A stretch of DNA of 64,000 bases, from assembly GCA_050250895.1 (NCBI GenBank), contig JBFWNU010000001.1, positions 2,150,210 to 2,214,209 of the forward strand. The letters run 5' to 3'. Shown here piece after piece: positions 2,080-20,296 of the stretch. The number at the start of each line of letters is the position of its first letter. The first letter of the stretch is position 1. The notes beneath the pieces are model-generated. The model had not been told where the DNA came from, ran no database searches, and was given only the letters and a program-made list of their open reading frames with translations. This DNA is from Vulcanimicrobiota bacterium. GTDB taxonomy: Bacteria; Vulcanimicrobiota; Xenobia; Xenobiales; JADMJV01. Made by a program: the position numbers and the translations under genes.

Positions 2080-2084
2080 GAGGA

Positions 2085-3164: not shown

Positions 3165-4147
3165 GGATACCCGATCGTCTCGGCCCCATCCTCGGGGTAA
3201 GCCGCCGGGCAGTCGCTTCCCCCGCGGGTAGTCAAGAGGCCGTTCCTGCCTCGAACGGCGACGAGGTGCGGCTTAGTGCCACCCGCCCTCGAGCCGCTCT
3301 CAAGGCCTGCGCCGCTGTGTGTCTGGTCACTGCCCTCTCGGGCTGTGCGTCGGTTGGCGGCTTCGTGGCCGGCCCCGTCCACCGCGCTGCGGCCGCGCTG
3401 GCCCCGGCCGGCACCTGCGCCCCCAGCGAACCGGGTCAGCGAGTCGACGACAAGGTCGAAGACGCTATCCTTAAGCAATCGAATCAACCGGCCTGTCTGC
3501 TCGACCTGCACGCCGGCAACCCCGGGCGTAGCACGGTGGTGACGATTCACGGCATTCACGGCTCGCCGGTCAGCCTGGAAGAGGTGGCTCAGACCGCCGC
3601 TGACCGGGGGCATTCGGTCAAGACCTTGCTCTATGATGATCAGCACAGTCGCCTCACCAAAGTGAGCCGGGATCTGGCCGAGTCGATCGCCGCCTGGCGC
3701 CGCGACCATCCCGGCGACAAGCTCACCCTGGTGGCTCACAGCATGGGGGCTCGCATCGCGGTGGGAGCCCTGCATGAGCTGGCCCGCACCCATCGCCTAT
3801 CTCAGGGCGAGTACCAGCTTTACCTGGTCTGTCCCACCCTAGACGGCTATCCGTCGGCCAACATGGCCGAGATGGCCTTCGATTGGATGGAGCGCTTTCC
3901 CGACATCGCCCCCAGCCGCGATATGGGGGACCGCAGCGCCTTTCAGCGTCTGCTCGAGTCGACCCACCCGCCGGCTAACGTCAAGACCACCATCCTGCTT
4001 GGAGCCCACGACGACGTGGTCGACGCGCGCGCCTCGGGCTTTCAAACCATCGCCACCAATCTGCGGGCCGAGGTGGCCACCTTCGATGGCGGCCACTCCA
4101 ATATCGGCCTGCCCGTCTCGCGCATTCTCGACTTCGACCCGCGGTGA
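3161..4147 (+). CDS. lipoprotein alpha/beta-hydrolase, paralogue of the preceding gene
   Basis: Same architecture as the upstream gene: lipobox LSGCAS, VTIHGIHGSP, nucleophile elbow VAHSMGA. Overlaps the upstream stop by 4 nt, indicating a tandem duplicate in an operon. Confidence 0.6.
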   Translation: MRIPDRLGPILGVSRRAVASPAGSQEAVPASNGDEVRLSATRPRAALKACAAVCLVTALSGCASVGGFVAGPVHRAAAALAPAGTCAPSEPGQRVDDKVEDAILKQSNQPACLLDLHAGNPGRSTVVTIHGIHGSPVSLEEVAQTAADRGHSVKTLLYDDQHSRLTKVSRDLAESIAAWRRDHPGDKLTLVAHSMGARIAVGALHELARTHRLSQGEYQLYLVCPTLDGYPSANMAEMAFDWMERFPDIAPSRDMGDRSAFQRLLESTHPPANVKTTILLGAHDDVVDARASGFQTIATNLRAEVATFDGGHSNIGLPVSRILDFDPR

Positions 4148-5982
4148 GCCTCAGCCGGCTCAACCAGCTCAACCGCGAGATCGGCCAGGCGCGCCGCTTG
4201 CGCGCAGCCCTGCTGGCCGCCCTGGAAGGCCTCGAGGCCTTGCTCGAATGCCGGGCGCGGGTGGTGACCGAGGACTTTGACTTCGGCTGTGCCGTCGATG
4301 GAGCTGCCCTGCCCGGGCGCTACCGGTTGGCCTACGAGCTACACCCTCTCTTTCGCGAGGCGCGCCGTCTTACTCTCCTGGCGGCCGCCGAGGGGCTGGA
4401 TGGCAAGCCCTGCCTGTTGGTGTGCCTGCGAGGAGGGTTCATCTATCTCGACCGGGATCGTGAGTTCACCACCGAGGAGTTGGCCATGGCCGGTCTGGTC
4501 GGGCAGCAGCTCTCGTCCGTGGCGGAGAAGTTTCAGGGCACCCCCCGAGTCGGAGATGCCATCACCGGGCTGCCCGATCGACTCTGGTTCGCCAACCAGC
4601 TCCACTCGGTCTCGGCCTCTCACTTTGCCATCCTGGCCGTCGAGATCGATGGTTTCGGCGAGTTCAATCGCAGCCACGGGGCCGCCCGCGGCGACCAGCT
4701 TTTGCGCGACGTGGTGGCCTTTCTGTCGGACCGCATAAAGGCCAACGATCTGCTGGCCCGCTCGCAGTGCGACGAGTTCCTCGTTCTCGTTCACCGGGCC
4801 GACAAAGAGAGCCTGGCCAGCGAATGGCGCGAGCATCTGGCCGCCTTTGAAGAACTCGGCTACCAGGTGACCCTGTCGCTGGGTCTGGCCTGCTACCCGG
4901 AGGATGGCGACAAGCCGCGTCAGTTGCTGGAACTGGCCGAACGCGCCTGCCTGCGGGCCACCGGCCTTTCGGACCGCCTGGTCCTGATCTCGAGCCAGCC
5001 CCAGCTCAAACTCACCGACGGAGAGGGTTTCGAGGATCCGACCGCCCAGTTCGACATGCGAGCCCGCGCCGCCGTGGGTTCGGCCGTGGCCGAGTGTCAG
5101 ACGAGCCGGCGCCACGTCGACGGAGTGGCTCTGCTTTGGGGCATTCACGAGCAGGTCCGGGCCTTGTCCAAGCTATTGGCCCAGGCCAATCTGACCGCCG
5201 GTCGGGTGAGGGCGATGCTGGTCCAGGCCGGCTATCCCACCGTCGAGTTCACGGCCGGCTGTCTGGCCATCTTCGCCGAGGCTCAGCGGTTGGCCCAACT
5301 GGCCGGCCGTCAGACCATCGGGGCCGATGAGCTGCTGCTGGCCAGTCTGGCCGATGCGACCACGGAAGAGGCCCTGCGTTCGGAGGGCATCAGCTACGGC
5401 AAGTTGCTCAGGCTGCTCTATCAAAGCGGGCTGTTGGCCTCCGGGGCGACCCTGATCATCGAGCGCTATCCGGTGGTGCGCTATGTCGAGGAGCAGACCC
5501 AGAAGCGCTCGCAGCCGCCCGTGATCGAGCGCAAGCAGTCTGACAAGCCATGGAGCGACTTTCTTGACGCCGAGGTGTGGCAGGCCCTGGCCGTGGCTCG
5601 CGACGAGGCCCAGCGCATGCGGGCCGATGTCTGCCTCGAGCACCTCTATCTCGGGCTGGTGAGCGTGCAAGGCCTGGCCACCGAGGCGGTACGAGCGGCG
5701 GTGGGCCGCCTCGAGGTGGCCTGGATTCAACCCCAGCGCTCGGGGCTAAACCGGGAGGTGGTGGCCCTCTTCAACGAGATGGGCGAGATCTTTGGCGGGG
5801 TCGACCTGCCTCGCCTCGAGCGCATCCTTCTGCAGCGGCCCGAGATCCTGCGTCTGCTCGAGTCCCTCGAGGGTCCAGCGGCGCGCCAGCCAGAGCGGGG
5901 GGAAGGCGAGCATGCCGAAGCAGCAGTCGATGAGTCGCCAGAACCAGGGGATGCCGCGCAGGGGCCCGCAGACGAGAGCTAG
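4144..5982 (+). CDS. degenerate GGDEF-domain protein with C-terminal Clp_N-like repeat pairs
   Basis: Central block GLPDRLWF...RSHGAARGDQLLRDV...RSQCDEFLVLV matches GGDEF-domain topology, but the signature is QCDEF rather than GG(D/E)EF. The C-terminal half has two Clp N-terminal-type repeat pairs (e.g. ADELLLASLAD..., WQALAVARDEAQRMRADVCLEHLYLGLVS...). Overlaps the upstream stop by 4 nt. Confidence 0.6.
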   Translation: MSLSRLNQLNREIGQARRLRAALLAALEGLEALLECRARVVTEDFDFGCAVDGAALPGRYRLAYELHPLFREARRLTLLAAAEGLDGKPCLLVCLRGGFIYLDRDREFTTEELAMAGLVGQQLSSVAEKFQGTPRVGDAITGLPDRLWFANQLHSVSASHFAILAVEIDGFGEFNRSHGAARGDQLLRDVVAFLSDRIKANDLLARSQCDEFLVLVHRADKESLASEWREHLAAFEELGYQVTLSLGLACYPEDGDKPRQLLELAERACLRATGLSDRLVLISSQPQLKLTDGEGFEDPTAQFDMRARAAVGSAVAECQTSRRHVDGVALLWGIHEQVRALSKLLAQANLTAGRVRAMLVQAGYPTVEFTAGCLAIFAEAQRLAQLAGRQTIGADELLLASLADATTEEALRSEGISYGKLLRLLYQSGLLASGATLIIERYPVVRYVEEQTQKRSQPPVIERKQSDKPWSDFLDAEVWQALAVARDEAQRMRADVCLEHLYLGLVSVQGLATEAVRAAVGRLEVAWIQPQRSGLNREVVALFNEMGEIFGGVDLPRLERILLQRPEILRLLESLEGPAARQPERGEGEHAEAAVDESPEPGDAAQGPADES

Positions 5983-6327
5983 CGGCAGCACCAGCACGCA
6001 GGCGAGTAGGCCGAACTCGATGACCCACAGGTTGCGGGCCGGGTCGCGCCAGGGTCCCACGAACAAGATGGCCAGCAGCAGGTGGGCGAAGGCCAGCCAG
6101 TCGGTGCCGTAGGCCAGCCAGGGCGAGTGGGAATAGGCCGTGGCCAGACCCTGACGCACGGTAACCAGCCAGTTGACGAGGGGGCCGTGCTCCTGGCCCG
6201 GGGCAAGACCGCCGAGCAACAGGTCCAGTTCCCACAGAATCGGGAAGGCGGTCAGGCCCGAGAGCACCAGCCCGGCCATCACGACGATCAAGGCCAGGCG
6301 GATTTTGCGAAGGCGTGAACTTTGCAC
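5746..6327 (-). CDS. hypothetical integral membrane protein (about 4 TM helices)
   Basis: Four hydrophobic Trp/Phe-containing segments typical of real TM helices. Its 3' end overlaps the 3' end of the convergent gene 4144..5982 by ~237 nt, so one of the two ends is uncertain. Confidence 0.4.
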   Translation of the reverse strand: MQSSRLRKIRLALIVVMAGLVLSGLTAFPILWELDLLLGGLAPGQEHGPLVNWLVTVRQGLATAYSHSPWLAYGTDWLAFAHLLLAILFVGPWRDPARNLWVIEFGLLACVLVLPLALVCGPLRGIPWFWRLIDCCFGMLAFPPLWLARRWTLEGLEQTQDLGPLQKDALEARQVDPAKDLAHLVEEGHHLPV

Positions 6328-6453
6328 GACAAAGTTTTCTCGGTGGTCGGGGTGAGGTCCTCTGTGGCCGGACTTACGCGCAGAAGAGGCCGGAAGCCGG
6401 GCCCTGGCTAGCGGGTCCAGTTTCGACCGGCACTATCCGGGGCACACTAGGCC

Positions 6454-7236
6454 ATGCGCCGTGTGCATCTGTTCGAGATCGAGGATCAGACCTGGTGCCC
6501 GAGTTGGCTGAGGGACCATATGACCGATTTTCTCAGCTGGTTCTTCATCACGTTCAAGGTCTATAATCCGGTGGCACCGCTGTTGCAGCGGCTGTTGAAG
6601 CTCGGTAAGACCAATCGCATTCTGGACCTGTGCTCCGGGGGATGCGGACCGTGGCCCGAGTTGATGGCGGCCCTGGGCGGGCTGGACACCCACCCGGTGA
6701 TCACTCTGAGCGACTTGTATCCCAACGTTCCCGCCTTTCGAGCCACTGCGGAGCGGTCGCCGGGCCGGGTCGAGTACGTGCGCGAGCCTCTCGACGCGAC
6801 CAATGTTCCCGAGACCTACGAAGGCCTGCGCACTCTCTTCACCTCGTTCCACCACTTCCCGCCAGAAATGGCTCGCCGGGTGCTGGCCTCGGCGGCGCAA
6901 GCGAGGCGACCGATCGCCGTGGTGGAATGTGTCGAACGCCAGTGGTATAACCTGCTGCTGGTGCCGCTGGGGGCGGTGTTGCTGTCGCTGGTGTCGGTGT
7001 TATTCATTCGACCCTTCAGCCCGTCACGATGCTGGTGGACTTACGCTGTTCCGCTGGTTCCGCTGACGGTGGCCTGGGACGGGATCGCCTCGATTTTGAG
7101 GGCTTACCGCCCTCACGAGCTCTTAGAGTTGGCCCCGCCTACAGCCGGCTATCGTTGGGAGGCGGGAATGCTGCCGGCGCGCTTGCCGGTGCGGATTACC
7201 TATTTGATCGGATGGCCAGAAGCTGAAGGAGCTTAG
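6454..7236 (+). CDS. class I SAM-dependent methyltransferase with C-terminal membrane segments
   Basis: Motif I ILDLCSGGCGPW (GxGxG-type SAM-binding loop). Hydrophobic helices in the C-terminal third. Confidence 0.6.
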   Translation: MRRVHLFEIEDQTWCPSWLRDHMTDFLSWFFITFKVYNPVAPLLQRLLKLGKTNRILDLCSGGCGPWPELMAALGGLDTHPVITLSDLYPNVPAFRATAERSPGRVEYVREPLDATNVPETYEGLRTLFTSFHHFPPEMARRVLASAAQARRPIAVVECVERQWYNLLLVPLGAVLLSLVSVLFIRPFSPSRCWWTYAVPLVPLTVAWDGIASILRAYRPHELLELAPPTAGYRWEAGMLPARLPVRITYLIGWPEAEGA

Positions 7237-9022: not shown

Positions 9023-9504
9023 CAGACCTGGCCCGGCCATTCGGCAACACCCACTGCCGAATCGGAGTAGGCTCTCTAGCGATTTTTATGGTTGAGGCCG
9101 GTGCGGCTGGAAGGTCGTTCCCCCGTCGTTCAAGACGCCGCCGGCCGCCGGCCAGGTGGTGCCGGATTCTGCACGTGGTGCTGCCGTACTCGGGCGAGTT
9201 TGCTCTTCCGTGCTTCCGTGCTTGAGAGTCGTCTCCATATTGATCGGGCCGCCACCGAGCCAGCGCCGTTTTGAATACCCCGTTCGATGTCAAAACCCTA
9301 ATCCATAAATTCGCCAGGACGCTCACCCCACGGCCCCCACAACCCTCTCCGTGCCCTCCTGATCTCCGCGGTTTATTTCTCACGCGCGCCACTGGCGAGC
9401 CACACCGACCTGTGCTTCGACCACGCGCCGCGCCGCCACGACAGACGCGCTGAAGGCGACGCCTACTCCGAATCGCGCCAACCCGCCAAAAGCCAGGCCA
9501 AAAC

Positions 9505-10410
9505 TTGCCTTGGTCGGGCCGGCGGGCCGGCGGGCCCAACCGGGGTTCACCCCGTGATTTCACGGTGTGGACAAGCTTTCAGCGTCGATTCAGGGCCGCC
9601 TGGCAAGCTGGGGGCATGATTGGTTCCGTGTCCGCATTTCGCCCCGGGCTGCCGGCCCGCACCGCCAGCAAGGCTACGGATGAACTCGAGCAGCGCATCG
9701 AGATGCTCGAGACCCTGTCTCGTTCTCGTGGGGGCAGCGAGTTGCAGGAGAAGATCAAGCAGACTCGGGCTTTACTCGCCGAGGCTCGCAAGCCCGACCT
9801 GACCTTCAGCGACCAGACGAAGACCGAGGTCCGCGACTATCTCAAGGGCAGTCAGGTACTACCCCAGGCTTTCGACACCCACCAGAACGAGCAACTCGAG
9901 GTTTTCGGCAAGCTCGTCCAACGCGGGATGCACTTCCGCCGTTCCGGTCAGGAATTGCCCCCCGATCAGGCATTTCTCGGGCTCATCGCCAAGCCTTATC
10001 ACGCCCTGGACGAGCAGATCTGTTTCCAGTGCCACCTTCCCCAGGGCATTCGTGCGGTTACCCTCAGGCCCCAATATCTGCCGGCCGTCAACTTCTTTTT
10101 GGAGCGCACCCTCGAGGGCGAGGTCTTCTATCGCAAGCCCGATGCCAAGTCGTCGATGTTCGACCCCCAGCCCAATCGCGACGGCTATGTCGAGATCAAG
10201 ACCGTAGATGATTTCGTCAGCCATTATCACGACCATCCCGAGCAAGCCGTGGTTCGCTTTGGGGGAGTTTACACCACTCGAGAGCAGATCCAGAGCGACC
10301 GCGACTACATCGCGGCGCTGGCCGCCAATCACGACAGCAATCTGATCGATGACCTGGGCGACCACCTGATGGTGGGTGGGGTCATGCTCGACAAGAACCC
10401 CGACTGGTAG
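9505..10410 (+). CDS. hypothetical protein (function unknown; convergent with the SagB gene)
   Basis: 301-aa ORF; the likely true start is the internal Met (MIGSVSAF...) at ~9616. No recognisable catalytic motif; contains CFQCH. Confidence 0.4.
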   Translation: MPWSGRRAGGPNRGSPRDFTVWTSFQRRFRAAWQAGGMIGSVSAFRPGLPARTASKATDELEQRIEMLETLSRSRGGSELQEKIKQTRALLAEARKPDLTFSDQTKTEVRDYLKGSQVLPQAFDTHQNEQLEVFGKLVQRGMHFRRSGQELPPDQAFLGLIAKPYHALDEQICFQCHLPQGIRAVTLRPQYLPAVNFFLERTLEGEVFYRKPDAKSSMFDPQPNRDGYVEIKTVDDFVSHYHDHPEQAVVRFGGVYTTREQIQSDRDYIAALAANHDSNLIDDLGDHLMVGGVMLDKNPDW

Positions 10411-10435: not shown

Positions 10436-11638
10436 CTACATCAAGGCGAACTCGGCCACCGAGCTTTCTTCTTCATAGACTGTCCCGGCCAGGCGGCAGA
10501 ACAGGTCAGAGTCGCCGTAGCCGAGGGCGCAGACCGAGAGGCCCAGGGCGGTGGCCACCAGATACATCGTTTGGAGGATGGCTCCGGCGTTCTTGAGGGC
10601 CAGCGAGTAGGCGATGGCGCTGTATTTCCAGGCCAGCGCGGGAAAGCGGGCCGCCATCGTGACCACCACCGCGGGCGGACGCTCGATACCCAGGGCCCAG
10701 GCGGCGTTGAACAGCATATCGAGGCGAGCCTGGGGGGCCGAGGAGAAGAGTTCCAGAGTGTGGTCCAGGGGATCGTAGCGGTAAAAGCCCGGCTCGAGCC
10801 CGACGCAGGCTCCCACCGTCAGATAGAGTTCTTGCTCGAAGATGGCTCCGGCGCTGGCGAAGGGGCGCAGCTTGAGGCCCGGCTCCTGGGCCCGGGCGCA
10901 GTAGTGCAGAAAGTCTCCCAGGCGTCCAAGGTCCAGGGGGGGTTGGCCGGGTTGGCGGCGGCTGCGGCGGTTGGCCAGCACCTCGTCGAGAGCTTGAGCG
11001 AGACGACCGTTGGGAGGGCCCAGAGCCAGGCGACCCTGGGGCTGGCGAGGCCGGCGCTGGGGGGGGTCGAGTCGGCCCGCAAAACGGCGGGTCGCTCCCA
11101 TGGGGTGGCGATGGCGGCCCCGTCGGGAGCGGGCGTGGAAGAACAGGTCGTGGAATTCCCAGACGGCCAGGTGAGGCGCTTCATCTTCGTCCGGCCCGGT
11201 GACGTGGAGGCCGCACTCGGCCAGCAGCTGGCAACCCCAATCCGGGACCAGCAGGGCGGGCAAAGCGCACGGGTCGAGGACCACAATCCTGGCCAGGGCC
11301 CGGGGTGACTCGATCAGCAGCAGGCGACCCTCGCGCCGGCAACAGGCAAAGCGCGACAACCGATAGGTTGCCTCGGGTTGGTAGGCCAGGGCTTGATAGT
11401 AGGGCGAGAGCAGTTGGCGGGCCAATCTTGGACCCTCGGCGGTGACCAGCACTTCTTCCAGGCAACCGTTGCGCAGCAACAGTTCGGCCCGGGTCAACAG
11501 TTCCACGGCCTGGTGGGGGGCAAGGGCGGTCAGCTGTTGACGGGTCAGGCCCTGCTCGAGGTCGGGGCTCAGTTCTGTCCATTGCCGAGGATCAGCTCCG
11601 GCAATCGCCCGCAGACGCACTTCAGACGTTGAGGTCAA
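10436..11638 (-). CDS. SagB-type FMN-dependent dehydrogenase (nitroreductase fold; TOMM azoline oxidase) with ~190-aa N-terminal extension
   Basis: C-terminal half has the nitroreductase/SagB pattern (PSAGAIFEQELYLTV...AWKYSAIAYSLALKNAGAILQTMYLVATALGLSVCALGYGDSDLF). The 5' end overlaps the upstream YcaO gene by 17 nt, indicating translational coupling. Confidence 0.8.
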   Translation of the reverse strand: MTSTSEVRLRAIAGADPRQWTELSPDLEQGLTRQQLTALAPHQAVELLTRAELLLRNGCLEEVLVTAEGPRLARQLLSPYYQALAYQPEATYRLSRFACCRREGRLLLIESPRALARIVVLDPCALPALLVPDWGCQLLAECGLHVTGPDEDEAPHLAVWEFHDLFFHARSRRGRHRHPMGATRRFAGRLDPPQRRPRQPQGRLALGPPNGRLAQALDEVLANRRSRRQPGQPPLDLGRLGDFLHYCARAQEPGLKLRPFASAGAIFEQELYLTVGACVGLEPGFYRYDPLDHTLELFSSAPQARLDMLFNAAWALGIERPPAVVVTMAARFPALAWKYSAIAYSLALKNAGAILQTMYLVATALGLSVCALGYGDSDLFCRLAGTVYEEESSVAEFALM

Positions 11639-13712
11639 CAGGGTTCACCTCGGCTTCGGGAGTGGAGGCGGTGAGCCAACCCATGGCCACCGGGATGTCG
11701 TAGAGGCGCCCCGGAGCCAGGCGACGCCAGTGGTGGCGCATGCCGGGCACCACCACTCGGGCCACGGGCAGGCCGACATCCGAGCGAGTCAGGTCGACCA
11801 CCAGCATCTCGAGCCCGCGGGCGGCTACCAGTTCGTTGATGGTGGCCAGCGGATCGGGCCAATCCGGCAGCCGCAGGTCTTGCCAGGGCCGTCGCTCGGC
11901 ACCGGGGCGAAGATAGGCCCAATCGTCTACGCACAGGTTATAAGAGCTGAGTTCGTCGCGCTCGGGCAGGCCGCGGCCGGGGCGCTGGGCCTGGGAAAGG
12001 GGTTGGGGCAGGAACTGGTTCATCTCGGTGAGGGCGCGCATGATGGCCTGGCGAGGGTCGTGGTGAGCTCCGAAAGCCAGCGTGAGCTGGTCGGGCTCGG
12101 GTGCGCGGCGGCGGCTGACGGCCACGCAGGCTGGGATGGCGAAGTCGGCGGTCACATCCAGCACCCAGAAATCGCGGTCCATCTGGTCATAGGCCCGACG
12201 CAGGCGCCCGAGATAGTCGTCATCCAGGCCGGTCAGGTCAATCTCGGGGCGGGTCAGCCGGTGATACCACCACATGGCCACGCTGTCTCGCTCGACCAGT
12301 TCGAAAAAACCCTGGACCACGGCGTCCTCGAAGCTCGCCCCGGCGGCGCAGCCGTTGGATTCACCCACTGTGTAGAGGTGGTCGGCTTCGGTGTAGCCAT
12401 AGTGGACAAAGCCCGCGGCCAGATAGCGCCAGCCTTGGTGGGTCAGCGACCAGGCCTTTACCCAACGGATTGGCTGGTTCTCGTCGAGGGGGCGGGGCAC
12501 TCGGAGCTTGGGCGAAGAAACGCGGCCGCCCCCCTGCTCGAACTGGCGCTGGCTAAAGAGCATACAATGGTTGGGATGGATGGCCCGCTCGCCCAGTTCG
12601 AGACAGCTGGCCACGCGGTGAGGCTCTTCGCCGCGCCACAGCGAGCTGTGGCGCTCGAGGGCTTCGGCCAGCGCACTGACCCGGGCCTGGGCCGCGGTGG
12701 GTCCCTTCCCCCCCGCGAAGCTCTCGCGTCGGGTCTTCCACTGCTCAAGACTTTTGGCCAGCTGAGGGCGCTGGTAGGTCGAGCGAAAGACGTGCAAATT
12801 GTGGCTCAGTAAGGGCTCGAGGCGGCTGACCAAACCGGTCAGCGGGCTGACGTGGTGGCTATAGGTTTGGTAGAAGGCCTCAGCATCGAGCTGGCGGGAT
12901 AGGTTGGCCGTGCCGAGCCGCGGCGGCCCCGGCTGGCCAGGCGCTTGTCCGCAACGGTGGCATTGCGGACGTCTTATCACGGTGTGCTCGTGACTCTGGC
13001 CGGTAGCGGTGGCGAAGGTCATCAGCTTCTCGAGTCCCGCTCCGGTGGCAGCCCGGATCAGCAACTTGTTGACCACCAGATTGTAGACCAGGGCCAGCGA
13101 GGTGGGCAGGGTTGGGGCGGGGGTCGGCCGAGAAACCACCAGGCAGCGCGGCTCGCGGTTGCGTTCGAGGCGGTGGGCCAGGCAGTGCCAGCAGGCTCCG
13201 GGCTCGCCCAGCACCGGACCCAGCCAGGCCTCGACTCCGCCGGGCTTGACCAAGAAGAAGGGGCCTTGCAATTCGCCCAGCTCTGGTTGGAGATAGTCGT
13301 CCACCAACACCACCAGGAGGCCTCCGTCGACCCCGACACTGGCTGACTTGAAGGCCTCCAGCAGTGGCTCGTCGGGTTGGCTCGAGAGATTCACCACGTT
13401 CACCGACAGGGGTGGGGGGGCGAGGTCCTGGGCCTGCCAGTACGGGTGCGTGTCGTGGTTGACCAGCAGGCTGTCGACCTTGAGTTGGACCACCGCCTCC
13501 AGCAATTGGTGCGAGGGATACTGGCTGGCGAGCGCTCGCACCAATCCGGTGAAATCGAGGCCGCCGTCGAGTAATGGCAGCAGGTCGTTGTAGACTTTAC
13601 CCTCGAGCAGACGATCGCCGCCATCGGTCAACAGTAGAACACCGGCCTGGTCTGGTAGGGGGGCCGCCGTCAGGTGAGCTTTTAGCCGCAGGGGGTGGGC
13701 TAGAAAGTCCAC
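11622..13712 (-). CDS. fused TOMM cyclodehydratase: E1/ThiF-like docking (C) domain + YcaO (D) domain
   Basis: 696 aa. The C-terminal half carries the YcaO ATP-binding signature (ESNGCAAGASFEDAVVQGFFELVERDSVAMWWYHR) and a proline-rich C-terminus typical of azoline-forming YcaOs. The N-terminal half is Rossmann-like E1-type without an obvious glycine loop, as in SagC/PatD N-domains. Begins 3 nt after the precursor ORF stop. Confidence 0.85.
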   Translation of the reverse strand: MDFLAHPLRLKAHLTAAPLPDQAGVLLLTDGGDRLLEGKVYNDLLPLLDGGLDFTGLVRALASQYPSHQLLEAVVQLKVDSLLVNHDTHPYWQAQDLAPPPLSVNVVNLSSQPDEPLLEAFKSASVGVDGGLLVVLVDDYLQPELGELQGPFFLVKPGGVEAWLGPVLGEPGACWHCLAHRLERNREPRCLVVSRPTPAPTLPTSLALVYNLVVNKLLIRAATGAGLEKLMTFATATGQSHEHTVIRRPQCHRCGQAPGQPGPPRLGTANLSRQLDAEAFYQTYSHHVSPLTGLVSRLEPLLSHNLHVFRSTYQRPQLAKSLEQWKTRRESFAGGKGPTAAQARVSALAEALERHSSLWRGEEPHRVASCLELGERAIHPNHCMLFSQRQFEQGGGRVSSPKLRVPRPLDENQPIRWVKAWSLTHQGWRYLAAGFVHYGYTEADHLYTVGESNGCAAGASFEDAVVQGFFELVERDSVAMWWYHRLTRPEIDLTGLDDDYLGRLRRAYDQMDRDFWVLDVTADFAIPACVAVSRRRAPEPDQLTLAFGAHHDPRQAIMRALTEMNQFLPQPLSQAQRPGRGLPERDELSSYNLCVDDWAYLRPGAERRPWQDLRLPDWPDPLATINELVAARGLEMLVVDLTRSDVGLPVARVVVPGMRHHWRRLAPGRLYDIPVAMGWLTASTPEAEVNPVDLNV

Positions 13713-13715
13713 CTC

Positions 13716-13943
13716 TTACGAGGCGGAATAGGTGCAGCCGCAGCTGTCGCAGCCGCCATCACAGCCGTCGGTGCCCGGACCAGCGTTGACCGCCAGGGTT
13801 TGGCGGATATCCAGTTCTCGCATGGCGGGGGTGATCCAGGGCTTTTTGCTATCGGCTGCGTCCATCTTCGCAAGTTCTTCGAAGGTGCTTAGCCTCCTTC
13901 TGGGGTTGACCGCTTGGATTGGCAAAGATACCATGCCGTCCAT
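13716..13943 (-). CDS. RiPP precursor peptide (leader + Cys/Ser/Thr/Asp-rich C-terminal core ...GTDGCDGGCDSCGCTYSAS)
   Basis: Small ORF immediately 5' of, and co-oriented with, the YcaO-SagB operon. C-terminal 19 residues contain 4 Cys, 4 Ser/Thr and 3 Asp in Gly-rich spacing, then stop. An alternative in-frame start at 13865 (MDAADSKKPWITPAMRELDIRQTLAVNAGPG...) gives a 49-aa peptide and avoids overlap with the divergent kinase gene. Confidence 0.6.
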   Translation of the reverse strand: MDGMVSLPIQAVNPRRRLSTFEELAKMDAADSKKPWITPAMRELDIRQTLAVNAGPGTDGCDGGCDSCGCTYSAS

Positions 13944-14796
13944 GGCCAGTCGCTACCGCGCCTTCGAACTCGAAATCACCTCTGAATTCCCCCTTCCAGC
14001 CGCGCCCGGCAGTGGCGACCTCGAGGCGGACGTAACCATCGTGGCGGGCCGGGTGCCCGGGAGTCTGAGGTTTCCGTCGGACACTGGTTTGTTATTTCAG
14101 GCGGCTCCCGATGAATTCTTGCTGTCGGTCGCGGGCATTGCCCGTTACTATGTCGAGGCGGGTCATCAGATCACCGTCGAGCCGGCCGCGGGCGCCAAAG
14201 CCGACGCGGTCGAGGTTTTTCTCTCGGGCTCCGCCATGGGGGCCCTATTGCATCAGCGCGGCCTGCTGGCCTTGCATGCCTCGGCGGTCGCCCTGAGAGA
14301 TATGGCCGTCGTGTTCGCTGGACCCTCGGGGGCCGGCAAATCGACCCTGGTGAGCACCCTGATAGGGCGTGGCTACGAGATCCTTTGTGACGATATCTGT
14401 GTCCTTCGCCAGGACCTGGTGTTGCCGGGTTATACCCGCCTGAGGCTCTGGAAAGATAGCCTGGAGGGATTGGGCCTCCAACCCGGGCGACGGATCCGCG
14501 AGGGTATCGAGAAGTTCGAGTTCGACCACTCGGGTCGCGCCGGCTCGCTGCCCTGTCGGCAACTGTTTTTGCTTGGCTCAGGAGAAGCCGTCATCGAGCC
14601 GGGCAGCCGTCTCCAGCATCTTATTCGCAACACCTATCGGCGCCGCTATTTGCGGGGTCTGGGCCGGCAGGAGCAACACTTTCAGGCCTGCGCCCGGCTG
14701 GCCGGTCGGCTGCCCATGGCCTGGCTCGAGCGCGGCCGCGTGTTCGGACAGCTGCCCGGGCTGCTGGAGGAATGGACGGGTGCGGCCAGGGGATGA
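13933..14796 (+). CDS. HprK C-terminal-domain-like P-loop serine kinase (RiPP-associated HPr kinase homologue)
   Basis: Walker A GPSGAGKST embedded in AVALRDMAVVFAGPSGAGKSTLVSTLIGRGYEILCDD, as in the HPr kinase/phosphorylase C-domain. The annotated ORF starts at 13732; the start is chosen at the internal Met 13933, divergent from the precursor. Confidence 0.6.
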   Translation: MPSMASRYRAFELEITSEFPLPAAPGSGDLEADVTIVAGRVPGSLRFPSDTGLLFQAAPDEFLLSVAGIARYYVEAGHQITVEPAAGAKADAVEVFLSGSAMGALLHQRGLLALHASAVALRDMAVVFAGPSGAGKSTLVSTLIGRGYEILCDDICVLRQDLVLPGYTRLRLWKDSLEGLGLQPGRRIREGIEKFEFDHSGRAGSLPCRQLFLLGSGEAVIEPGSRLQHLIRNTYRRRYLRGLGRQEQHFQACARLAGRLPMAWLERGRVFGQLPGLLEEWTGAARG

Positions 14797-15632
14797 GGCG
14801 GCTGGTCTGGCTGGCGTCTTACCCGAAGTCGGGAAACACCTGGTTTCGAGCCTTCCTGCGGGCCCTGTTCAGCGGCTCGGTCACTCTTAACGCGCTGGGC
14901 TTCGAGCACTCGGGACGGCGTCGCGACTATGACGAGCTACTGGGCATCGAGACGGCTTATCTTCACGATCATGAACTCGAGCTGCTGCGGCCGGAGGTCT
15001 ACCGGGCCAAAGCGCGCGAGTGCCCGCACCCGGCCCTGGTGGTCAAGACCCACGAGGGCTACCGCAAGCTCGGCGACGGCGGTTGCTTGTTTCCTCCCGA
15101 GTGTACTCGGGGAGTGGTCTATCTGGCCCGCAATCCTCTGGACGTGGCGGTGTCTTACGCCTTTCATCTGGAAGAGGGCGACTTCGATCAGGCTATCGCC
15201 AAGATGGGCAGCCAGCAGTCCTGGGGTATGGCTCGCGACCGCTACAGCCATCAGACCAGCCAGTTGCTGCCGGACTGGAGCACCCACGTCTCGGGCTGGC
15301 TCGACAATCACGAATTGCCGGTGCATCTGGTTCGGTATGAAGCACTGCTCGCGCAACCCGAGGCGACCTTCGCCGAGGCCCTGGCCTTTCTCGGGCTGGA
15401 GTACTCGCCGGAGCAGGTATCCCAGGCCGTCGAGTTGAGCAGCTTCGAGCGCTTGCGTGAGCAGGAGCAGCGACAGGGCTTCTGGGAGAAAATGCGAGTC
15501 GGGGTCGAGTTCTTTCGGCGCGGCCAGGCGGGCCAATGGCGTCAACACTTGAGTCCTGAGCAGAGGGACAGGGTGTTGTCCCAGCACCACAACGTGATGG
15601 CCAGACTGGGCTATCTTCCGGAGGGTGACTAG
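14772..15632 (+). CDS. PAPS-dependent sulfotransferase family protein
   Basis: 5'-phosphosulfate binding loop YPKSGNTW, followed by the RNPLDVAVSY 3'-phosphate-binding region. The alternative start at ~14793 forms an ATGA overlap with the kinase stop. Confidence 0.75.
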   Translation: MDGCGQGMRRLVWLASYPKSGNTWFRAFLRALFSGSVTLNALGFEHSGRRRDYDELLGIETAYLHDHELELLRPEVYRAKARECPHPALVVKTHEGYRKLGDGGCLFPPECTRGVVYLARNPLDVAVSYAFHLEEGDFDQAIAKMGSQQSWGMARDRYSHQTSQLLPDWSTHVSGWLDNHELPVHLVRYEALLAQPEATFAEALAFLGLEYSPEQVSQAVELSSFERLREQEQRQGFWEKMRVGVEFFRRGQAGQWRQHLSPEQRDRVLSQHHNVMARLGYLPEGD

Positions 15633-15939
15633 CCAAAGAATCGAATCACTCCCCATGGGTTTGGGTAGGGACGCCATTTTGGTGCGACATCGTCACGTGG
15701 TCTCGACCGAGCTACCGGATGGAGAGGCGGCTCTGATGGACATGCAGAGCGGGACCTACTTTCATCTCAACAGTGTGGCTAGCAGGCTGTGGCAGCTGAT
15801 CGCCGAGCCGATCTCACTGGCTCAGGTTTTGACCGCTCTCGAGGATGAGTTCGAAGTCGAAGCGGACCGCTGCCACGACGAGGTGGTCAGCCTGGTGACG
15901 CAGTGGCTCGAGCGTGGCTTGAGCCAGGTCGTCGCGTGA
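15625..15939 (+). CDS. PqqD-family protein (stand-alone RiPP recognition element, lasso-peptide B1-like)
   Basis: ~100 aa. Pattern LMDMQSGTYFHLNSVASRLWQLI...VLTALEDEFEV...VVSLVTQWLERGL typical of PqqD/RRE proteins. Overlaps neighbours on both sides (operon). Confidence 0.75.
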   Translation: MTSQRIESLPMGLGRDAILVRHRHVVSTELPDGEAALMDMQSGTYFHLNSVASRLWQLIAEPISLAQVLTALEDEFEVEADRCHDEVVSLVTQWLERGLSQVVA

Positions 15940-17687
15940 CCCTGGCTGGCTCTTCGGGTAGCCACGGAGTCTATCAGCTGGAATGGCCCGTCACCCCGTG
16001 GTGCCGGGACCGGGTCAGTTTGGTGGAGGGGCTCGAAAGCCGGGGGCTTGCGGTGGGGGGTCACGTGCGTCTGGACTATGGCAAAGAGCTGCAGGCTCGA
16101 CTGGGGCTGGCCGAGGGGACGTCGGCGGCCGAACTGGTGCTGGCCGCCTGGCGAACGCGGGGGCCCGATTGCCTGACGATGCTCTTTGGAGAATTCGCCT
16201 TTGCCGTCTATGACGGCGAGGCCCTCTGGCTGGTTCAATCCCCGTTCGTGCGCTGGCCAATCTACTACACCGAGACTGCCGAGGGCCTGGCCTTTCATTC
16301 CAGCGCCCGCGCCCTGCACCGCCTGCTGGACCGAGCACCTCGACTGCACGAGCGAGCCCTGGCCGCCTGGGCAATTCGGCAGCGTCTGGTGGAACCCAGC
16401 GATACCTTTTTCGAAGGGGTTTCGCGGGTCGAGCCGGCTGGATTGGTGAAGGTGGTCGAGGGGCGGGTGGTGAGCCGCCATTGCTGGTGGAAGCCAGTCT
16501 GGAGTCCGGCCCCGGCCGGTCGCGACCTGGCCGAGCTGGCTGCCCACCTCACCGATCAGGCCGTTCGCTCGCGGTTGGGCAGTCGACCGGTCGGGTGCTA
16601 TCTGAGCGGAGGCCTGGACTCGAGCACTCTGACGGCCCTGGCCTGCCGGGCGCTAGGGCAGCAGGGGCGCCGCCTGATAGCCTTCTCTTCGGTCTTGCCG
16701 CCCGGATACGCCGGCCCGGAGCGCGACGAGCGAGAGCCGATCGGCGTGATGGCTCGGCATTTCGAACTGGAGGTAGTCGAAGTGGTGCCCACTCGGGGTC
16801 CGACCTGCGACCTGCCGGGCCACACCGAGCTGGCCGAATCCCCCTACCTATTCCCCAAGCAATATGTCTTCGCGGCGATGCTCGAAGCGGCCCGCCGACG
16901 CGGCCTGGCCACCATTCTCGATGGCGGCTTCGGAGAGTTGACCCTCAGCCACGATGCGCCGACGGCCTTTGCTTATCTGGCTCGTCGGGGTCGCTGGCGC
17001 GAGCTGGCCGGATTGGTCCAGGCCTGGGCGCCGCGGGCCGGGCTGCCCTGGTGGAGAGTATGGTTCGCGACGGTGCTCAGGCCGCTTCTTCCAACGCGCC
17101 GAGTTCCGGCGCCCTGGCTGCCTCTGCAGGCCGACTTTGTGGCCCGCCAGGGTCTTCGCCCTCGGTTTGAAAGGCCCCGCGCCCAGGGGTGGTTGCCACC
17201 GATGGAAGGGCTGACATCGGTCCTGACCGCGGTAGGAAGCAGCGCCCTGCCGTTCTATGACCGCCATTTCGGGGTCGAGGTGCACAAGCCGTTTCTCGAC
17301 CGTCGCCTGATCGAGTTCTGCCTGACGCTCGACCCGGCCGACTTCTGGCTCGACGGCTGGCGGCGGGGGCTGGTGCGCCAAGCCATGCGCGACATCCTGC
17401 CGCGGGCCATCGTCGAGCGGACCGATCGGGGCGCTTTCGCGCCCGACTTCTTTGCGCGCTTTCGCCAGGGAGCTCCGGCCTTGCGAGCCGAGTTTGGGTC
17501 TCAGGGGCCCACCGATCTGGCCGCCCACTACTTCGACCTGGAAAGCCTGAGAAAGCTGCTTGACCAGCTCACCAGCCGTCCCGCCAGCGAGAAGTCACCC
17601 CAGGGAGCCCAGGCCAAGCAGGTTCTGCTGCGCAGCCTGGGGGGCGTCCGCTTTCTACGAAGTCTTCACTCCCAACCCGTCCAGTGA
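15903..17687 (+). CDS. asparagine synthetase (AsnB)-like PP-loop ATP-pyrophosphatase (lasso-cyclase / amidotransferase-like)
   Basis: PP-loop VGCYLSGGLDSST. N-terminal Ntn-glutaminase-like fold (GEFAFAVYDGEALWL) lacks the catalytic N-terminal Cys, as in lasso-peptide lactam synthetases. 594 aa. Confidence 0.8.
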   Translation: MARAWLEPGRRVTLAGSSGSHGVYQLEWPVTPWCRDRVSLVEGLESRGLAVGGHVRLDYGKELQARLGLAEGTSAAELVLAAWRTRGPDCLTMLFGEFAFAVYDGEALWLVQSPFVRWPIYYTETAEGLAFHSSARALHRLLDRAPRLHERALAAWAIRQRLVEPSDTFFEGVSRVEPAGLVKVVEGRVVSRHCWWKPVWSPAPAGRDLAELAAHLTDQAVRSRLGSRPVGCYLSGGLDSSTLTALACRALGQQGRRLIAFSSVLPPGYAGPERDEREPIGVMARHFELEVVEVVPTRGPTCDLPGHTELAESPYLFPKQYVFAAMLEAARRRGLATILDGGFGELTLSHDAPTAFAYLARRGRWRELAGLVQAWAPRAGLPWWRVWFATVLRPLLPTRRVPAPWLPLQADFVARQGLRPRFERPRAQGWLPPMEGLTSVLTAVGSSALPFYDRHFGVEVHKPFLDRRLIEFCLTLDPADFWLDGWRRGLVRQAMRDILPRAIVERTDRGAFAPDFFARFRQGAPALRAEFGSQGPTDLAAHYFDLESLRKLLDQLTSRPASEKSPQGAQAKQVLLRSLGGVRFLRSLHSQPVQ

Positions 17688-18040
17688 GCTTCCCAGCTGC
17701 CATCATCGCGCCGAAAGACGACCCAGCTTCTGACCCGATACATTTGCCCTTCCTCGATCCAGGTGACGGGGTGCGAACTGACGTAGCGCTGGACCTGTTC
17801 GTCGGTGAACGTGCGCACGGTCACCTTCGGGGGTGGTCGGTGGGCCGGGGCAGGCGCTGACTGGACCGGCGCCTCGGCCACCTGCGTGGCTACCGGTTGC
17901 TGGGGTTGGTGCGGGGCCGAGCCGGGAGCCAGGGCCAGCGAGAGTAAGCACATCAAGACGACAAAGGCGAGAACGTAGCGCACTGGCTTAGATTCTGTGC
18001 CCACTTCAAGCGGTCCTCGTTGGAGGTCCTGGGCGCCCAT
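17666..18040 (-). CDS. hypothetical small exported/membrane-anchored protein
   Basis: Hydrophobic N-terminal segment ([19 protein letters not shown]) followed by a Pro/Ala/Gln-rich linker. Overlaps the ends of both neighbours; the real start is probably internal. Confidence 0.3.
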
Positions 18041-20296
18041 CCACGGAAGGAACCGGCGGGGTCATCAGAGATGCGACAAGAGGTCAATTTGACCGGCGAG
18101 GGTTTTCAGCTCGAAATAGAGCGGGGCCGATTTGAATGGCCCGGCGACGGGTCATTGCGCTTCTATGGGATTCCTGGGGCGTATCTTTGGCTTGACCCTT
18201 CCATGAAGATGATGCTACTGCCCTTCGTGCAAGAGGTCGGTAGAGATCTATTCACTCTGTTGGTGGCCCGGTCATCGAGTCACGGTACCCGCGAAGACTA
18301 CGAACAGATGGTCAACGAGCTGGCCCCCACCTTCGACCAGGGCTTTTTGGCCTGGGGTGAGGCCGTTTCGACCGCTGGCTGGGGACGCTTTGAGCTGTGC
18401 GAGTGCCAGCCCGAGCGGTGCCACGCGGTGGTAATCATCCGCAACGCCTGGGAGCGCATTATGCAAGCCGGCCTGGCCGCCGACGAACGCTGGGGATGCC
18501 CTTTCCTGCAAGGCAAGATCATCGGCATCTTTTCCCATGCTTTCGGCCGCAACTGTTGGGCCGACGAGACCCGGCGCGACGACCTGGGCGAGCACGATGT
18601 GGCCTTCACGGTGGCCCCCTCGACCAAGACCATCGAAACCGAAATCGAGTTGCTCCGCCAGGCCAGTATGCAAGAGCGCGAGCGGGCCCTGGCCGCCGAG
18701 GTGCGCAAGAAGACCGACGAGTTGCAAGAGGCCCGGGCCGCCCTGGAAGAGTATTCTCGCCAACTCGAGACCAAGGTGGCCGCGCGCACCCGCGAGCTCG
18801 AGCGAAGCAACCTGCAATTGCGCGAGGCCAAAGCCAAGGCCGAAGAGGTCAACGAACTCAAGTCGATGTTCCTGGCCAGCATGAGCCATGAGATCCGCAC
18901 CCCCATGAACGGCGTGATCGGCATGACCAGCCTGCTCGAACGCACCGAACTCGATAGCGACCAGCGCGAATTCGTCGAGATTATTCGCAAGAGTGGCGAC
19001 TCGTTACTCAATATCATCAATGACATCCTCGATTTCACCAAGATCGAGGCTGGCCGGATCGACCTCGAGTCTCTGCCTTTCCAGCCCGAGGATGTGCTCG
19101 AAGAGGCCCTGGACCTGGTAGCCGCCCCGGCCACCGCCAAAGGTCTCGAGTTGGTCTCGCTGGTTTGTGACCAGTTGCCTCGACGGGTCGAAGGCGACCC
19201 TAGCCGGCTGCGCCAGGTGATGGTAAATCTGCTGGCCAACGCCGTCAAGTTCACCCGTCAGGGCGAAGCCCGGATCGAACTCTCGGCCCAATCAGAAGGG
19301 GATTTCTGGCGACTGGTCGGCAAGGTCAGCGACACCGGGCCCGGCATACCTCAGGCTCCTCGTCGCGATCTTTTCGAGCCCTTCGCGGGAGCCGTGATCT
19401 CCCGCGGCAAGGGCACCGGGCTGGGCCTGCCCATCAGCCGCCGTCTCTGTCGCTTGATGGGCGGCGACATCGGCTTCGAGACCGAGGTCGGGCGGGGGTC
19501 GACCTTCACTTTTTCGGCCCTCGTCCGAGCCCTTCCCAGCCAGGAGTACGAGCCTGAATTGACCGGTGCCGACATTCTGGTGATCGAGCCTGACCAGGGC
19601 CTTGGGGCCAGCCTGGTGGGGATGGTAGAGCGCCTGGGGGGCAAGGCTCGCCGATTGGCGGCCCCACCTCAGAGTTGGGGTCAAGAAGACGCGGTGTTGG
19701 TCAATTGGGCCGTTGGCAGCCAGCTCAAAGACTGCCCTCTACCAGTCGTGTTACTGGCTCCGCTCGGTTGTTCCAAGCGACCCGAACACGCCCTGACCCT
19801 GGTCCACAAGCCGGTCAAACGCTCCACGCTGGTGCGAGCGCTCAGGCCTCTCATCAAGCCGGGCGTAACTCGCCAGTCGCTGGACGACGGCGCCCAGAAT
19901 GGCGAGTTCTCTGGCCTCCGGGTTCTGTTGGTCGAGGACAATCTGGTCAACCAGAAGGTGGCCAGAATGATGCTGGCCCGACTGGGCATTCGAGCCGATC
20001 TGGCCAGCAACGGTCTGGAAGCGATCGAGGCGGTGGGGCGGCAACCTTACGATCTCATCCTCATGGATATTCAGATGCCTGAACTCGACGGCATCGGGGC
20101 CACCCACCGCATTCGCGACTGGGAAGAGCGAGAATCCCACCCGCGCCAGCGGATCGTGGCCGTCACCGCCGGGGCCATGGAGTCAGACCGCCAGCGCTGT
20201 CACCGAGCCGGGGTCGACGCCTTTTTGTCCAAGCCGTTCAAGTTACCCGAACTGGAACGGGCTATCCGAGCAGTTTTGCGGGAACCGCGAGGCTAG
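18020..20296 (+). CDS. hybrid sensor histidine kinase / response regulator with N-terminal uncharacterised sensory domain
   Basis: HisKA H-box [18 protein letters not shown]. HATPase_c (N, G1, G2 boxes: [15 protein letters not shown]). C-terminal receiver domain ([10 protein letters not shown]...[14 protein letters not shown]...K). Coiled coil before HisKA. Probable start at the internal Met (~18071). Confidence 0.85.

Follow-up and report, generated by a model that had tools for sequence, protein, structure and literature searches.

Gene organization of the locus

Within the 64-kb stretch of Vulcanimicrobiota (Eremiobacterota) DNA analyzed here (contig JBFWNU010000001.1, positions 2,150,210 to 2,214,209; hereafter the window), a minus-strand open reading frame (ORF) for a 49-residue, Cys-rich peptide stands between two sets of enzyme genes. 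Downstream on the same strand lie genes for a fused E1-like/YcaO cyclodehydratase and a SagB/ThcOx-type dehydrogenase, a pair known from clusters for thiazole/oxazole-modified microcins (TOMMs) and linear peptides with azol(in)e rings (LAPs). Divergent from the ORF, on the plus strand, lie genes for an HprK-like peptide kinase, a sulfotransferase, a discrete PqqD-type recognition element and a lasso-cyclase-like Asn-synthetase homologue. The ORF is a genuine gene under purifying selection, and we consider it probable that its product is the single precursor of one integrated pathway to a peptide synthesized ribosomally and modified post-translationally (RiPP), in which lasso-type and azole-type chemistry are joined.

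The peptide gene is real and under selection

The original prediction placed a candidate precursor peptide in the minus-strand ORF 13716..13943. This ORF is present, and its translation (MDGMVSLPIQAVNPRRRLSTFEELAKMDAADSKKPWITPAMRELDIRQTLAVNAGPGTDGCDGGCDSCGCTYSAS*) has the 4 Cys, interspersed Asp, single Tyr and terminal Ser that had been described. It also lies directly upstream of a cyclodehydratase gene, its stop codon falling 3 nt before the GTG of the 696-aa fused E1-like/YcaO protein. The DNA has a G+C content of 63%, and ORFs of at least 40 aa number 123 within 16 kb; ORF size alone is therefore uninformative, and conservation is the test. The ORF is kept at the same place in three close relatives of the locus, L017 (an ENA metagenome), L018 (a Logan assembly) and L019 (GCA_020431725.1), which share the arrangement of the window with proteins 72–94% identical, and in all related loci it co-localizes with YcaO/SagB.

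The pattern of codon changes between the window and L017 differs sharply along the frame. In the last 25 codons, which encode the predicted core, we counted 8 synonymous and 0 non-synonymous changes; the first 24 codons, which encode the leader, have 7 synonymous and 5 non-synonymous changes, and the stretch of 26 codons that precedes the internal ATG has 4 and 12, respectively. Moreover, L019 carries an in-frame TAG inside this 26-codon upstream extension. Two starts had been proposed, giving peptides of 49 or 75 aa. The in-frame stop and the excess of non-synonymous changes upstream rule out the 75-aa form: changes in the extension resemble those of non-coding DNA, and the gene is the 49-aa form (49 aa and stop, 13716..13865, minus strand), which begins with the ATG at 13865 and leaves 67 bp (13866..13932) before the divergent kinase start. 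The NCBI annotation likewise gives the 49-aa ORF, as a 'hypothetical protein'. Neither start (13943 or 13865) had been credited with a strong Shine-Dalgarno (SD) sequence, and none lies 5–12 nt from either of them.

A chance open frame in G+C-rich DNA, never translated, would fit the abundance of ORFs of this length and the lack of an SD sequence. Against such a frame, changes in the core are synonymous only, across loci with a mean column identity of ~85% over an aligned 1.3 kb; the boundary of the ORF is kept while the upstream extension decays; the G+C content at third codon positions (0.74) is similar to that of neighboring genes; and a homologous peptide is present in the distant locus L020, described below. 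The codon-change pattern has in effect already refuted this explanation, and we give it next to no weight.

The divergent intergenic region (67 bp, 13866..13932) contains GAAGGAGG and the start of a promoter-like site. The former (13893..13900, minus strand) is conserved in all four Eremiobacterota loci; it lies 27 nt 5' of the peptide ATG, too distant for a Shine-Dalgarno role. The latter, TTGACC-17-TACCAT (13906..13934, plus strand), reaches 2 nt into the annotated kinase start codon. A second kinase ATG (13942) is conserved as well and could be the true start, on a leaderless or near-leaderless mRNA.

The peptide has a lasso-type leader and a Cys-rich core

The conserved frame reads MDAADSKKPWITPAMRELDIRQTL and then AVNAGPGTDGCDGGCDSCGCTYSAS. 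The leader had originally been described as matching none of the NHLP, Nif11 and double-Gly leader families, and no NHLP, Nif11 or other Pfam or NCBIfam precursor family does match above threshold (the Pfam scan of the 49-aa peptide returned no match). The leader is nevertheless no orphan: its class, which had been missed, is lasso-type and paeninodin-like, as indicated by similarity to PadeA, by the register of PbaA and by a match to NF033524. This last model, 'paeninodin family lasso peptide', is the sole family match of the peptide and is sub-threshold (E = 0.0012; 18.5 bits, cutoff 27). BLASTP against PadeA gave E = 5e-07, with KK.[YW]..P...LD[IV].QT[ML] and AGPGT in common. The composition of the PadeA sequence used here fits both m/z values published in PMC5067487.

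In the crystal structure of the paeninodin-like PbaB1-PbaA complex, the PbaA residues are K -18, W -15, P -12 and L -10 (PMC13381572). Residues K7, W10, P13 and M15 of the window peptide fall in the same register, which puts Thr23 at -2 and Leu24 at -1. Within the leader (residues 1–24; 13794..13865, minus strand), the motif W10-I-T-P13-A-M15 fits the binding motif for RiPP recognition elements (RREs), [Y/W]xxPx[L/V/I/A/F/Y], in which W is favored among paeninodin-like leaders (PMC13381572); the final Met is hydrophobic yet outside the listed residue set. The 13-residue distance from W10 to Thr23 is that of PadeA and PbaA, and L017–L020 keep this Thr.

Cleavage after Leu24, the site suggested by the leader register, would release a predicted core of 25 aa (13719..13793, minus strand), AVNAGPGTD-GCDGGCDSCGCTYSAS, comprising a ring segment from Ala1 to Asp9, Cys at positions 11, 15, 18 and 20, Tyr22 and, as last residue, Ser25. 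Its composition includes 4 Cys, 4 Ser and 2 Thr, and the Cys residues follow Gly (3/4) or Ser (1/4). The only core variants among the loci are A4S and T8M, while the acidic position that could accept a macrolactam bond (Asp9 in the window clade, Asp8 in L020) is invariant across loci. A C-terminal Ser ends the precursors of the window, L017–L021, L147 and L148, and such a Ser is required in kinase-associated lasso clusters (PMC9266682, PMC8498205). The paeninodin-like subfamily is marked by Thr(-2), by Asp or Glu at one of core positions 7–9 and, in kinase-linked clusters, by a C-terminal Ser. The Ser and Asp residues had been noted originally without these roles; given the kinase and the lasso-cyclase-like gene in the divergent operon, the terminal Ser is probably the phosphorylation site and the Asp probably the macrolactam acceptor.

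The divergent operon encodes lasso-type enzymes

The neighboring gene had been called a divergent kinase. Its identity as a kinase holds; it is, however, no mere neighbor but an HprK-like tailoring kinase, belonging to the type known to phosphorylate lasso precursors on their C-terminal Ser, and it heads a lasso-type operon. The gene (13933..14796, plus strand) encodes an HprK-like (ScmC-type) peptide Ser kinase of 287 aa, a P-loop protein in which His115, Lys136 and Asp153-Asp154 correspond to the His-Lys-Asp-Asp catalytic motif of lasso-tailoring HprK-like kinases (PMC9266682). The protein reaches 38.7 bits with TIGR04352, under the cutoff of 200, and kinase orthologues in related loci match PF27840 (ScmC).

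Next is a 3'-phosphoadenosine-5'-phosphosulfate (PAPS)-type sulfotransferase gene (14772..15632, plus strand; PF00685, 8e-29), whose product contains intact PAPS motifs (PKSGNTW, KTHEG and RNPLD) and whose likely start, the ATG at 14793, overlaps the kinase stop as ATGA. The third gene (15625..15939, plus strand; PF05402, 2e-16) encodes a discrete PqqD-type RRE of 104 aa, resembling the lasso B1 chaperone. Its best NCBIfam match is lasso_PqqD_Bac (55 bits, cutoff 80), and in the PDB search its best solved relative was PbaB1 (9x90_B; E = 4.7e-10), with TbiB1 and TfuB1 next. The last gene (15903..17687, plus strand) encodes a homologue of Asn synthetase that scores best with the lasso cyclase model NF033535 (2.9e-55; 188 bits, cutoff 525); its likely start, the GTG at 15936, overlaps the B1 stop as GTGA. 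The Cys2 glutaminase nucleophile is missing in this cyclase homologue and all its relatives. A PDB search with it returned only AsnB-type enzymes, a beta-lactam synthetase and a hydroxyamidotransferase, the PDB holding no lasso cyclase structure. Because of the ATGA and GTGA start/stop overlaps, the kinase, sulfotransferase, B1 and cyclase genes form one translationally coupled operon. The operon corresponds to the published paeninodin-type tailoring set, in which a sulfotransferase also occurs (PMC8498205).

The cluster stands amid signaling genes, for a hybrid histidine kinase (18020..20296, plus strand), an FHA-GAF histidine kinase (26519..28366, minus strand) and a GGDEF protein (4144..5982, plus strand), and no transporter gene was seen beside it.

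The azole enzymes are above curated cutoffs

The enzymes downstream of the peptide gene belong to well-defined families. The fused E1-like (leader-binding, CxxC...CxxC)/YcaO cyclodehydratase (11622..13712, minus strand) matches TIGR03604 with 237.8 bits (cutoff 219.25), TIGR03882 with 79.3 bits (cutoff 36.9) and PF02624 at 1e-85; the SagB/ThcOx-type protein (10436..11638, minus strand; 400 aa), a flavin mononucleotide-dependent dehydrogenase of the kind that converts azolines to azoles, matches TIGR03605 with 132.9 bits (cutoff 78.4) together with PF22767 (ThcOx) and PF00881. The enzyme family assignments hold. The peptide is very likely the substrate of this YcaO/SagB pair.

A neighbor-joining tree built from 121 YcaO homologues groups P0014 and L020 with the window clade in one clade of five members, and an NPxDL ending at the YcaO C-terminus is common to the window clade (window 11622..11645), L020 (8680..8707) and P0014. 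No match to the winged-helix family PF21084 was obtained with the YcaO proteins of the window clade, L020 or P0014. We considered that the window YcaO had lost its own leader-binding domain, and dropped the idea, as the N-terminal region still aligns with homologues. P0014, a protein encoded on a 7.5-kb Logan contig, may mark a third hybrid locus. Outside this clade the gene contexts are different: a scan of GTDB genomes with the YcaO protein recovered 16 loci at 32–37% identity, mostly cyanobacterial, with kinase, cyclase or peptide in 0/16, and the best database matches, P0005 and P0093, lie in unrelated gene contexts.

The gene set recurs in an independent, rearranged locus

The close relatives say little about whether the two enzyme sets act together, since flanking housekeeping genes are conserved too in the Eremiobacterota loci and shared synteny therefore proves little. 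A more distant locus, L020/L026, was located via the nearest cyclase relative outside the window clade (34% identity). Here a cyclase gene overlaps a SagB gene, and the locus also encodes a sulfotransferase, two HprK-like paralogues, and a kinase-PqqD-YcaO run of overlapping genes. All six enzyme types are homologous to those of the window at 32–44% identity; the gene order differs, and lasso and azole genes are interleaved.

After the L020 YcaO gene lies a 73-aa ORF that reads ...SWKAPSYERLPINLTR then FTAGPGTDGGCGC...CMSSGS, its end dividing into a predicted leader and core as ...KRSWKAPSYERLPINLTR then FTAGPGTDGGCGCAGCACTGTPTSCACACACMSSGS. It shares with the window peptide WxxP, Thr at W+13, AGPGTDG, an acidic residue (here at core position 8), a Cys-rich tail (8 Cys) and a terminal Ser. 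Conversely, the four core peptides of the YcaO-less, kinase-linked loci L021a/b, L147 and L148 contain 0 Cys, as does PadeA, while leader, acidic residue and terminal Ser are all retained in the L021, L147 and L148 precursors. Cys-rich cores (4 and 8 Cys) thus occur only where YcaO/SagB is present, and the original claim of a precursor gene, conserved and co-localized with a YcaO/SagB pair, is borne out. Thr(-2) together with Asp or Glu at core 7–9 is clear in 9/10 tabulated precursors; that of L147 needs Thr at +15.

The interleaving in L020, the tracking of Cys with YcaO/SagB, the shared YcaO clade and the lack of a second precursor lead us to the reading in which one peptide serves both enzyme sets. 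Alternatively, two RiPP clusters may simply lie side by side, with the peptide a LAP/TOMM precursor and the lasso operon unrelated, perhaps decaying, and having lost its own precursor and B2 leader peptidase. Adjacent distinct RiPP clusters with similar leaders do exist (clusters for linear polyphosphorylated peptides, LPPs, adjoin paeninodin-like ones), B2 is indeed missing, and the syntenic loci are close relatives whose synteny is weak evidence. This arrangement seems improbable to us, however, because the peptide itself bears a lasso leader, Thr(-2), Asp9 and the terminal Ser; inspection of the ORFs of the cluster found no second precursor-like ORF; the four lasso-type genes are intact and conserved at 73–89% amino acid identity across the syntenic loci; and the distant L020 interleaves both enzyme sets, with overlapping genes and the same peptide type, whereas generic YcaO relatives (L001–L016, L023–L025) occur without lasso-type genes.

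The distribution of Cys also bears on the fate of these residues. In class I lasso peptides two disulfides join four Cys, and the four Cys of the window core might likewise form two disulfides, or bind metal, with YcaO/SagB acting on another substrate, a notion to which the atypical C-terminus of the window YcaO (see below) could lend weight. We find this very improbable, since the number of Cys, 4 in one lineage and 8 in the other, goes with the presence of YcaO/SagB, since in both lineages the peptide gene adjoins the YcaO gene or comes after it, and since no other substrate ORF was found. In addition, LAP cyclodehydratases prefer Cys after Gly, Ala or Ser, which is where the Cys residues stand.

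Searches with the peptide itself found few relatives. A phmmer search against 1.84 billion proteins retrieved the close Eremiobacterota orthologues (cluster P0001) and, beyond these, just a single doubtful match of 710 aa; a word-indexed search found no relatives outside P0001. A metagenome pattern scan for AGPGTDG with Cys options gave at least 120 chance matches, with no family member and no cluster enzymes among the matches listed. Either this peptide family has very few members in sequence databases or its members are rarely called there.

Several features of the related loci stand apart from the window. The L020 HprK/ScmC-like paralogues lie at 4201..5154 (minus strand) and 5216..6169 (plus strand), and one of them has PMEAAAV against PIHASAV, with Glu replacing the catalytic His. 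Directly after the L020 precursor lies a gene for a B12-binding radical SAM protein (9030..10349, minus strand), which suggests extra tailoring, for example C-methylation. L021 has tandem precursor-like ORFs (9963..10190 and 10215..10379, both minus strand) that read ...LPWSAPVVSR[VI]PIV..TR before the core and end in DDSAS and DDMHS; they adjoin an operon for a kinase, PqqD, a 2-oxoglutarate/Fe(II) oxygenase and a cyclase, which suggests hydroxylated, phosphorylated lasso-type peptides made without B2. In L147, a 48-aa precursor (1940..2086, plus strand) has a textbook YxxPxLx3Gx5Tx leader and a core, STANGTGADGTYS, whose 13 residues are too few for a normal threaded lasso. Encoded next to it is an unannotated 670-aa protein (5212..7224, plus strand) whose C-terminal half resembles, by eye, prenyltransferase/terpene-cyclase-like alpha-toroid repeats.

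No B2 leader peptidase was found in the window or in related loci

Macrolactam formation requires a free N-terminus, which the B2 peptidase would provide. The Pfam scan covered 44 ORFs, of which 40 belong to the set of 61 long ORFs mapped in the window, and none matched the B2 family PF13471. The canonical relative L022 does encode B2 (PF13471), and tblastn and phmmer searches with this genuine B2 found none in the window; at the B1/C junction tblastn gave only weak matches, of insufficient length and without significance. Nor was B2 found in L018, L019, L020/L026, L021, L147 or L148.

HprK-like kinase, PqqD and Asn-synthase-like clusters without B2 were seen in at least five independent lineages (the window, L026, L021, L147 and L148), and the precursors of these lineages retain WxxP/YxxP, Thr(-2), Asp at core 7–9 and the terminal Ser.

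As a candidate for the missing peptidase we examined the ORF 9613..10410 (plus strand, 265 aa), which is convergent with SagB, and rejected it: it has no Pfam, NCBIfam or PDB match and is absent from L020 and L021. Its conservation in L018/L019 (90–94%) exceeds that of the cluster enzymes; on both grounds it is probably not a cluster member.

The gap weighs against one integrated pathway with a lasso-type ring, and so do several further points. The peptide, B1 and cyclase each score under the curated NCBIfam cutoffs; the tail has few bulky residues (Tyr22 only in the window; none but Met in L020), which makes a stable threaded lasso doubtful; the C-terminus of the window YcaO, NPVDLNV, departs from the NPxPxF-like ends of ~115 homologues, which are this subfamily's form of the proline-rich C-terminal motif found in azoline-forming YcaOs; and only two independent lineages of the hybrid type are known. 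The peptidase may be encoded elsewhere, or the subfamily may mature differently. Retention of Thr(-2) argues for a peptidase encoded elsewhere. In the LPP family, a non-B2 peptidase can serve such leaders (PMC13381572), and the pseudomycoidin cyclase can act without leader and peptidase. Owing to the absence of B2 we hold the macrolactam step with only moderate confidence, and the gap favors an azole-phospho peptide without a lasso ring.

Such a product, with azoles and phosphate or sulfate and no lasso ring, would be a polythiazole phosphopeptide, linear or cross-linked in another way and similar to LPPs. No lasso-type peptidase would cut its leader, and its cyclase homologue might activate the conserved T-D-G Asp for another amide or imide link or act after an unrelated protease. 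None of the five independent lineages examined with kinase, PqqD and Asn-synthase-like genes has B2, LPPs show that an HprK-like kinase with a discrete RRE can give non-lasso products using a non-B2 leader peptidase, and the tails are poor in bulky plug residues. On the other hand, LPP clusters are without a cyclase, whereas here the cyclase is kept and translationally coupled to B1. The retained Thr(-2) and Asp/Glu at core 7–9 are the lasso signature, a cyclase without the glutaminase Cys needs a peptide amine as nucleophile, and the pseudomycoidin cyclase works with neither leader nor peptidase. On balance we regard a product without a ring as unlikely, if well worth keeping in view, and prefer the single pathway with ring closure set out below.

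A proposed pathway for one precursor

We infer every chemical step of this single pathway, as well as where the leader is cut and in which order the steps run; the product may be a threaded, true lasso or a branched-cyclic polythiazole. First, the leader, with its WxxPxM...T-x pattern, would be bound by the discrete PqqD-type chaperone, and the winged-helix domain of the cyclodehydratase may bind it as well. The E1-like/YcaO protein would then cyclodehydrate Cys11, 15, 18 and 20 on the linear peptide, and the SagB/ThcOx protein would oxidize the resulting rings to thiazoles, with a loss of 20 Da each; thiazole formation is suggested by the above-cutoff enzyme families and the small residues before Cys.

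The HprK-like kinase would phosphorylate Ser25 on the linear precursor, by analogy with the biochemistry of paeninodin, pseudomycoidin and the LPPs, and the sulfotransferase would perhaps add sulfate to a hydroxyl near the C-terminus. As the L020 peptide is without Tyr, Ser is the conserved candidate for sulfation. A peptidase not encoded in the window would cut the leader behind Thr(-2)-Leu(-1), after which the Asn-synthetase homologue would adenylate Asp9 and close the Ala1-Asp9 macrolactam. Work on pseudomycoidin suggests that a C-terminal phosphate and glycan can act as plugs. The calculated monoisotopic masses are 5034.20 Da for the precursor and 2266.79 Da for the free core; a core with the lactam and 4 thiazoles would have 2168.67 Da, rising to 2248.64 Da with phosphate and to 2328.59 Da with sulfate in addition.

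Taken in full, this would be a natural RiPP class in which one lasso-type precursor is closed into an N-terminal macrolactam, whether threaded or not, gains a polythiazole tail, and is (poly)phosphorylated at the C-terminus and sulfated, all without B2. We rate this complete description at an even chance.

Relation to known systems

Among the closest known systems are the paeninodin/pseudomycoidin-type clusters of Bacillota (precursors PadeA, PbaA and PsmA), which comprise an HprK-like kinase, B1, B2, C and sometimes a sulfotransferase and nucleotidyltransferase. The window shares with them the leader register, AGPGT, Asp9 and C-terminal Ser of the precursor, a B1 closest to PbaB1, the H/K/DD kinase, the sulfotransferase and a Cys2-less cyclase-like protein of Asn-synthetase type. 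In contrast, it is without B2, an ATP-binding cassette exporter and a nucleotidyltransferase, and it adds YcaO/SagB and a Cys-rich tail; its host belongs to the Vulcanimicrobiota (Eremiobacterota) rather than the Bacillota, and its peptide, B1 and C fall under the family cutoffs.

With TOMM or linear azol(in)e peptide clusters the window has in common the fused E1-like/YcaO protein and SagB, both above curated cutoffs, an adjacent upstream precursor, and a Cys-rich core with small residues before Cys. Its leader, however, is lasso-type, unlike any known TOMM leader, and lasso tailoring and ring-closing enzymes are added; its YcaO has no PF21084 match and ends in NPVDLNV rather than NPxPxF.

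LPPs (Popov et al. 2026, PMC13381572) have YxxP leaders, a signal peptidase (SpI/SipW-like), a nucleoside triphosphate (NTP)-transferase and no cyclase, and are phosphorylated on Ser3 of the core. They resemble the window in the discrete RRE with HprK-like kinase, in the [Y/W]xxP leader and in not using B2; the window differs in its WxxP leader, its cyclase and the conserved Ser at the C-terminus. No signal-peptidase (SpI-like) family was matched among the scanned window ORFs, and LppB (9x8z) was not among the PDB matches of the window B1.

Hybrid RiPPs have been engineered with chimeric leaders, so that a thiazoline cyclodehydratase and enzymes of another class act on one peptide (Burkhart et al. 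2017, as cited in PMC8498205). As that citation presents them, those hybrids are man-made, pairing azolines with lanthipeptide or sactipeptide enzymes, whereas the present locus is natural and combines azole-type with lasso-type enzymes. No natural lasso/azole hybrid appeared in the full-text literature searched, which included the 2021/2022 lasso-tailoring reviews and the 2026 LPP paper and in which engineered hybrids alone were mentioned, though an earlier description is possible. Probably, then, two known chemistries are joined here on one natural precursor, with the lack of B2 unexplained.

Implications

Lasso and azole peptides rank among the RiPP scaffolds studied most, and hybrids of RiPP classes have so far been engineered with chimeric leaders. 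The loci described here expose a set of kinase-linked lasso-type clusters without the supposedly essential B2 peptidase, and they do so in a host phylum, Vulcanimicrobiota/Eremiobacterota, that is largely uncultured. The whole system spans ~7.3 kb, counted as eight genes, and is amenable to direct heterologous expression and mass spectrometry. If the single-precursor reading is true, its product would be a new scaffold, a macrolactam-capped, charged polythiazole, and the locus would point either to a new way of removing the leader ahead of a lasso-type cyclase or to a cyclase homologue with a new reaction. We would further learn how a discrete B1 and the winged-helix domain of a cyclodehydratase share one leader or hand it over, and that one lasso-type leader can recruit both the lasso and the YcaO machinery.

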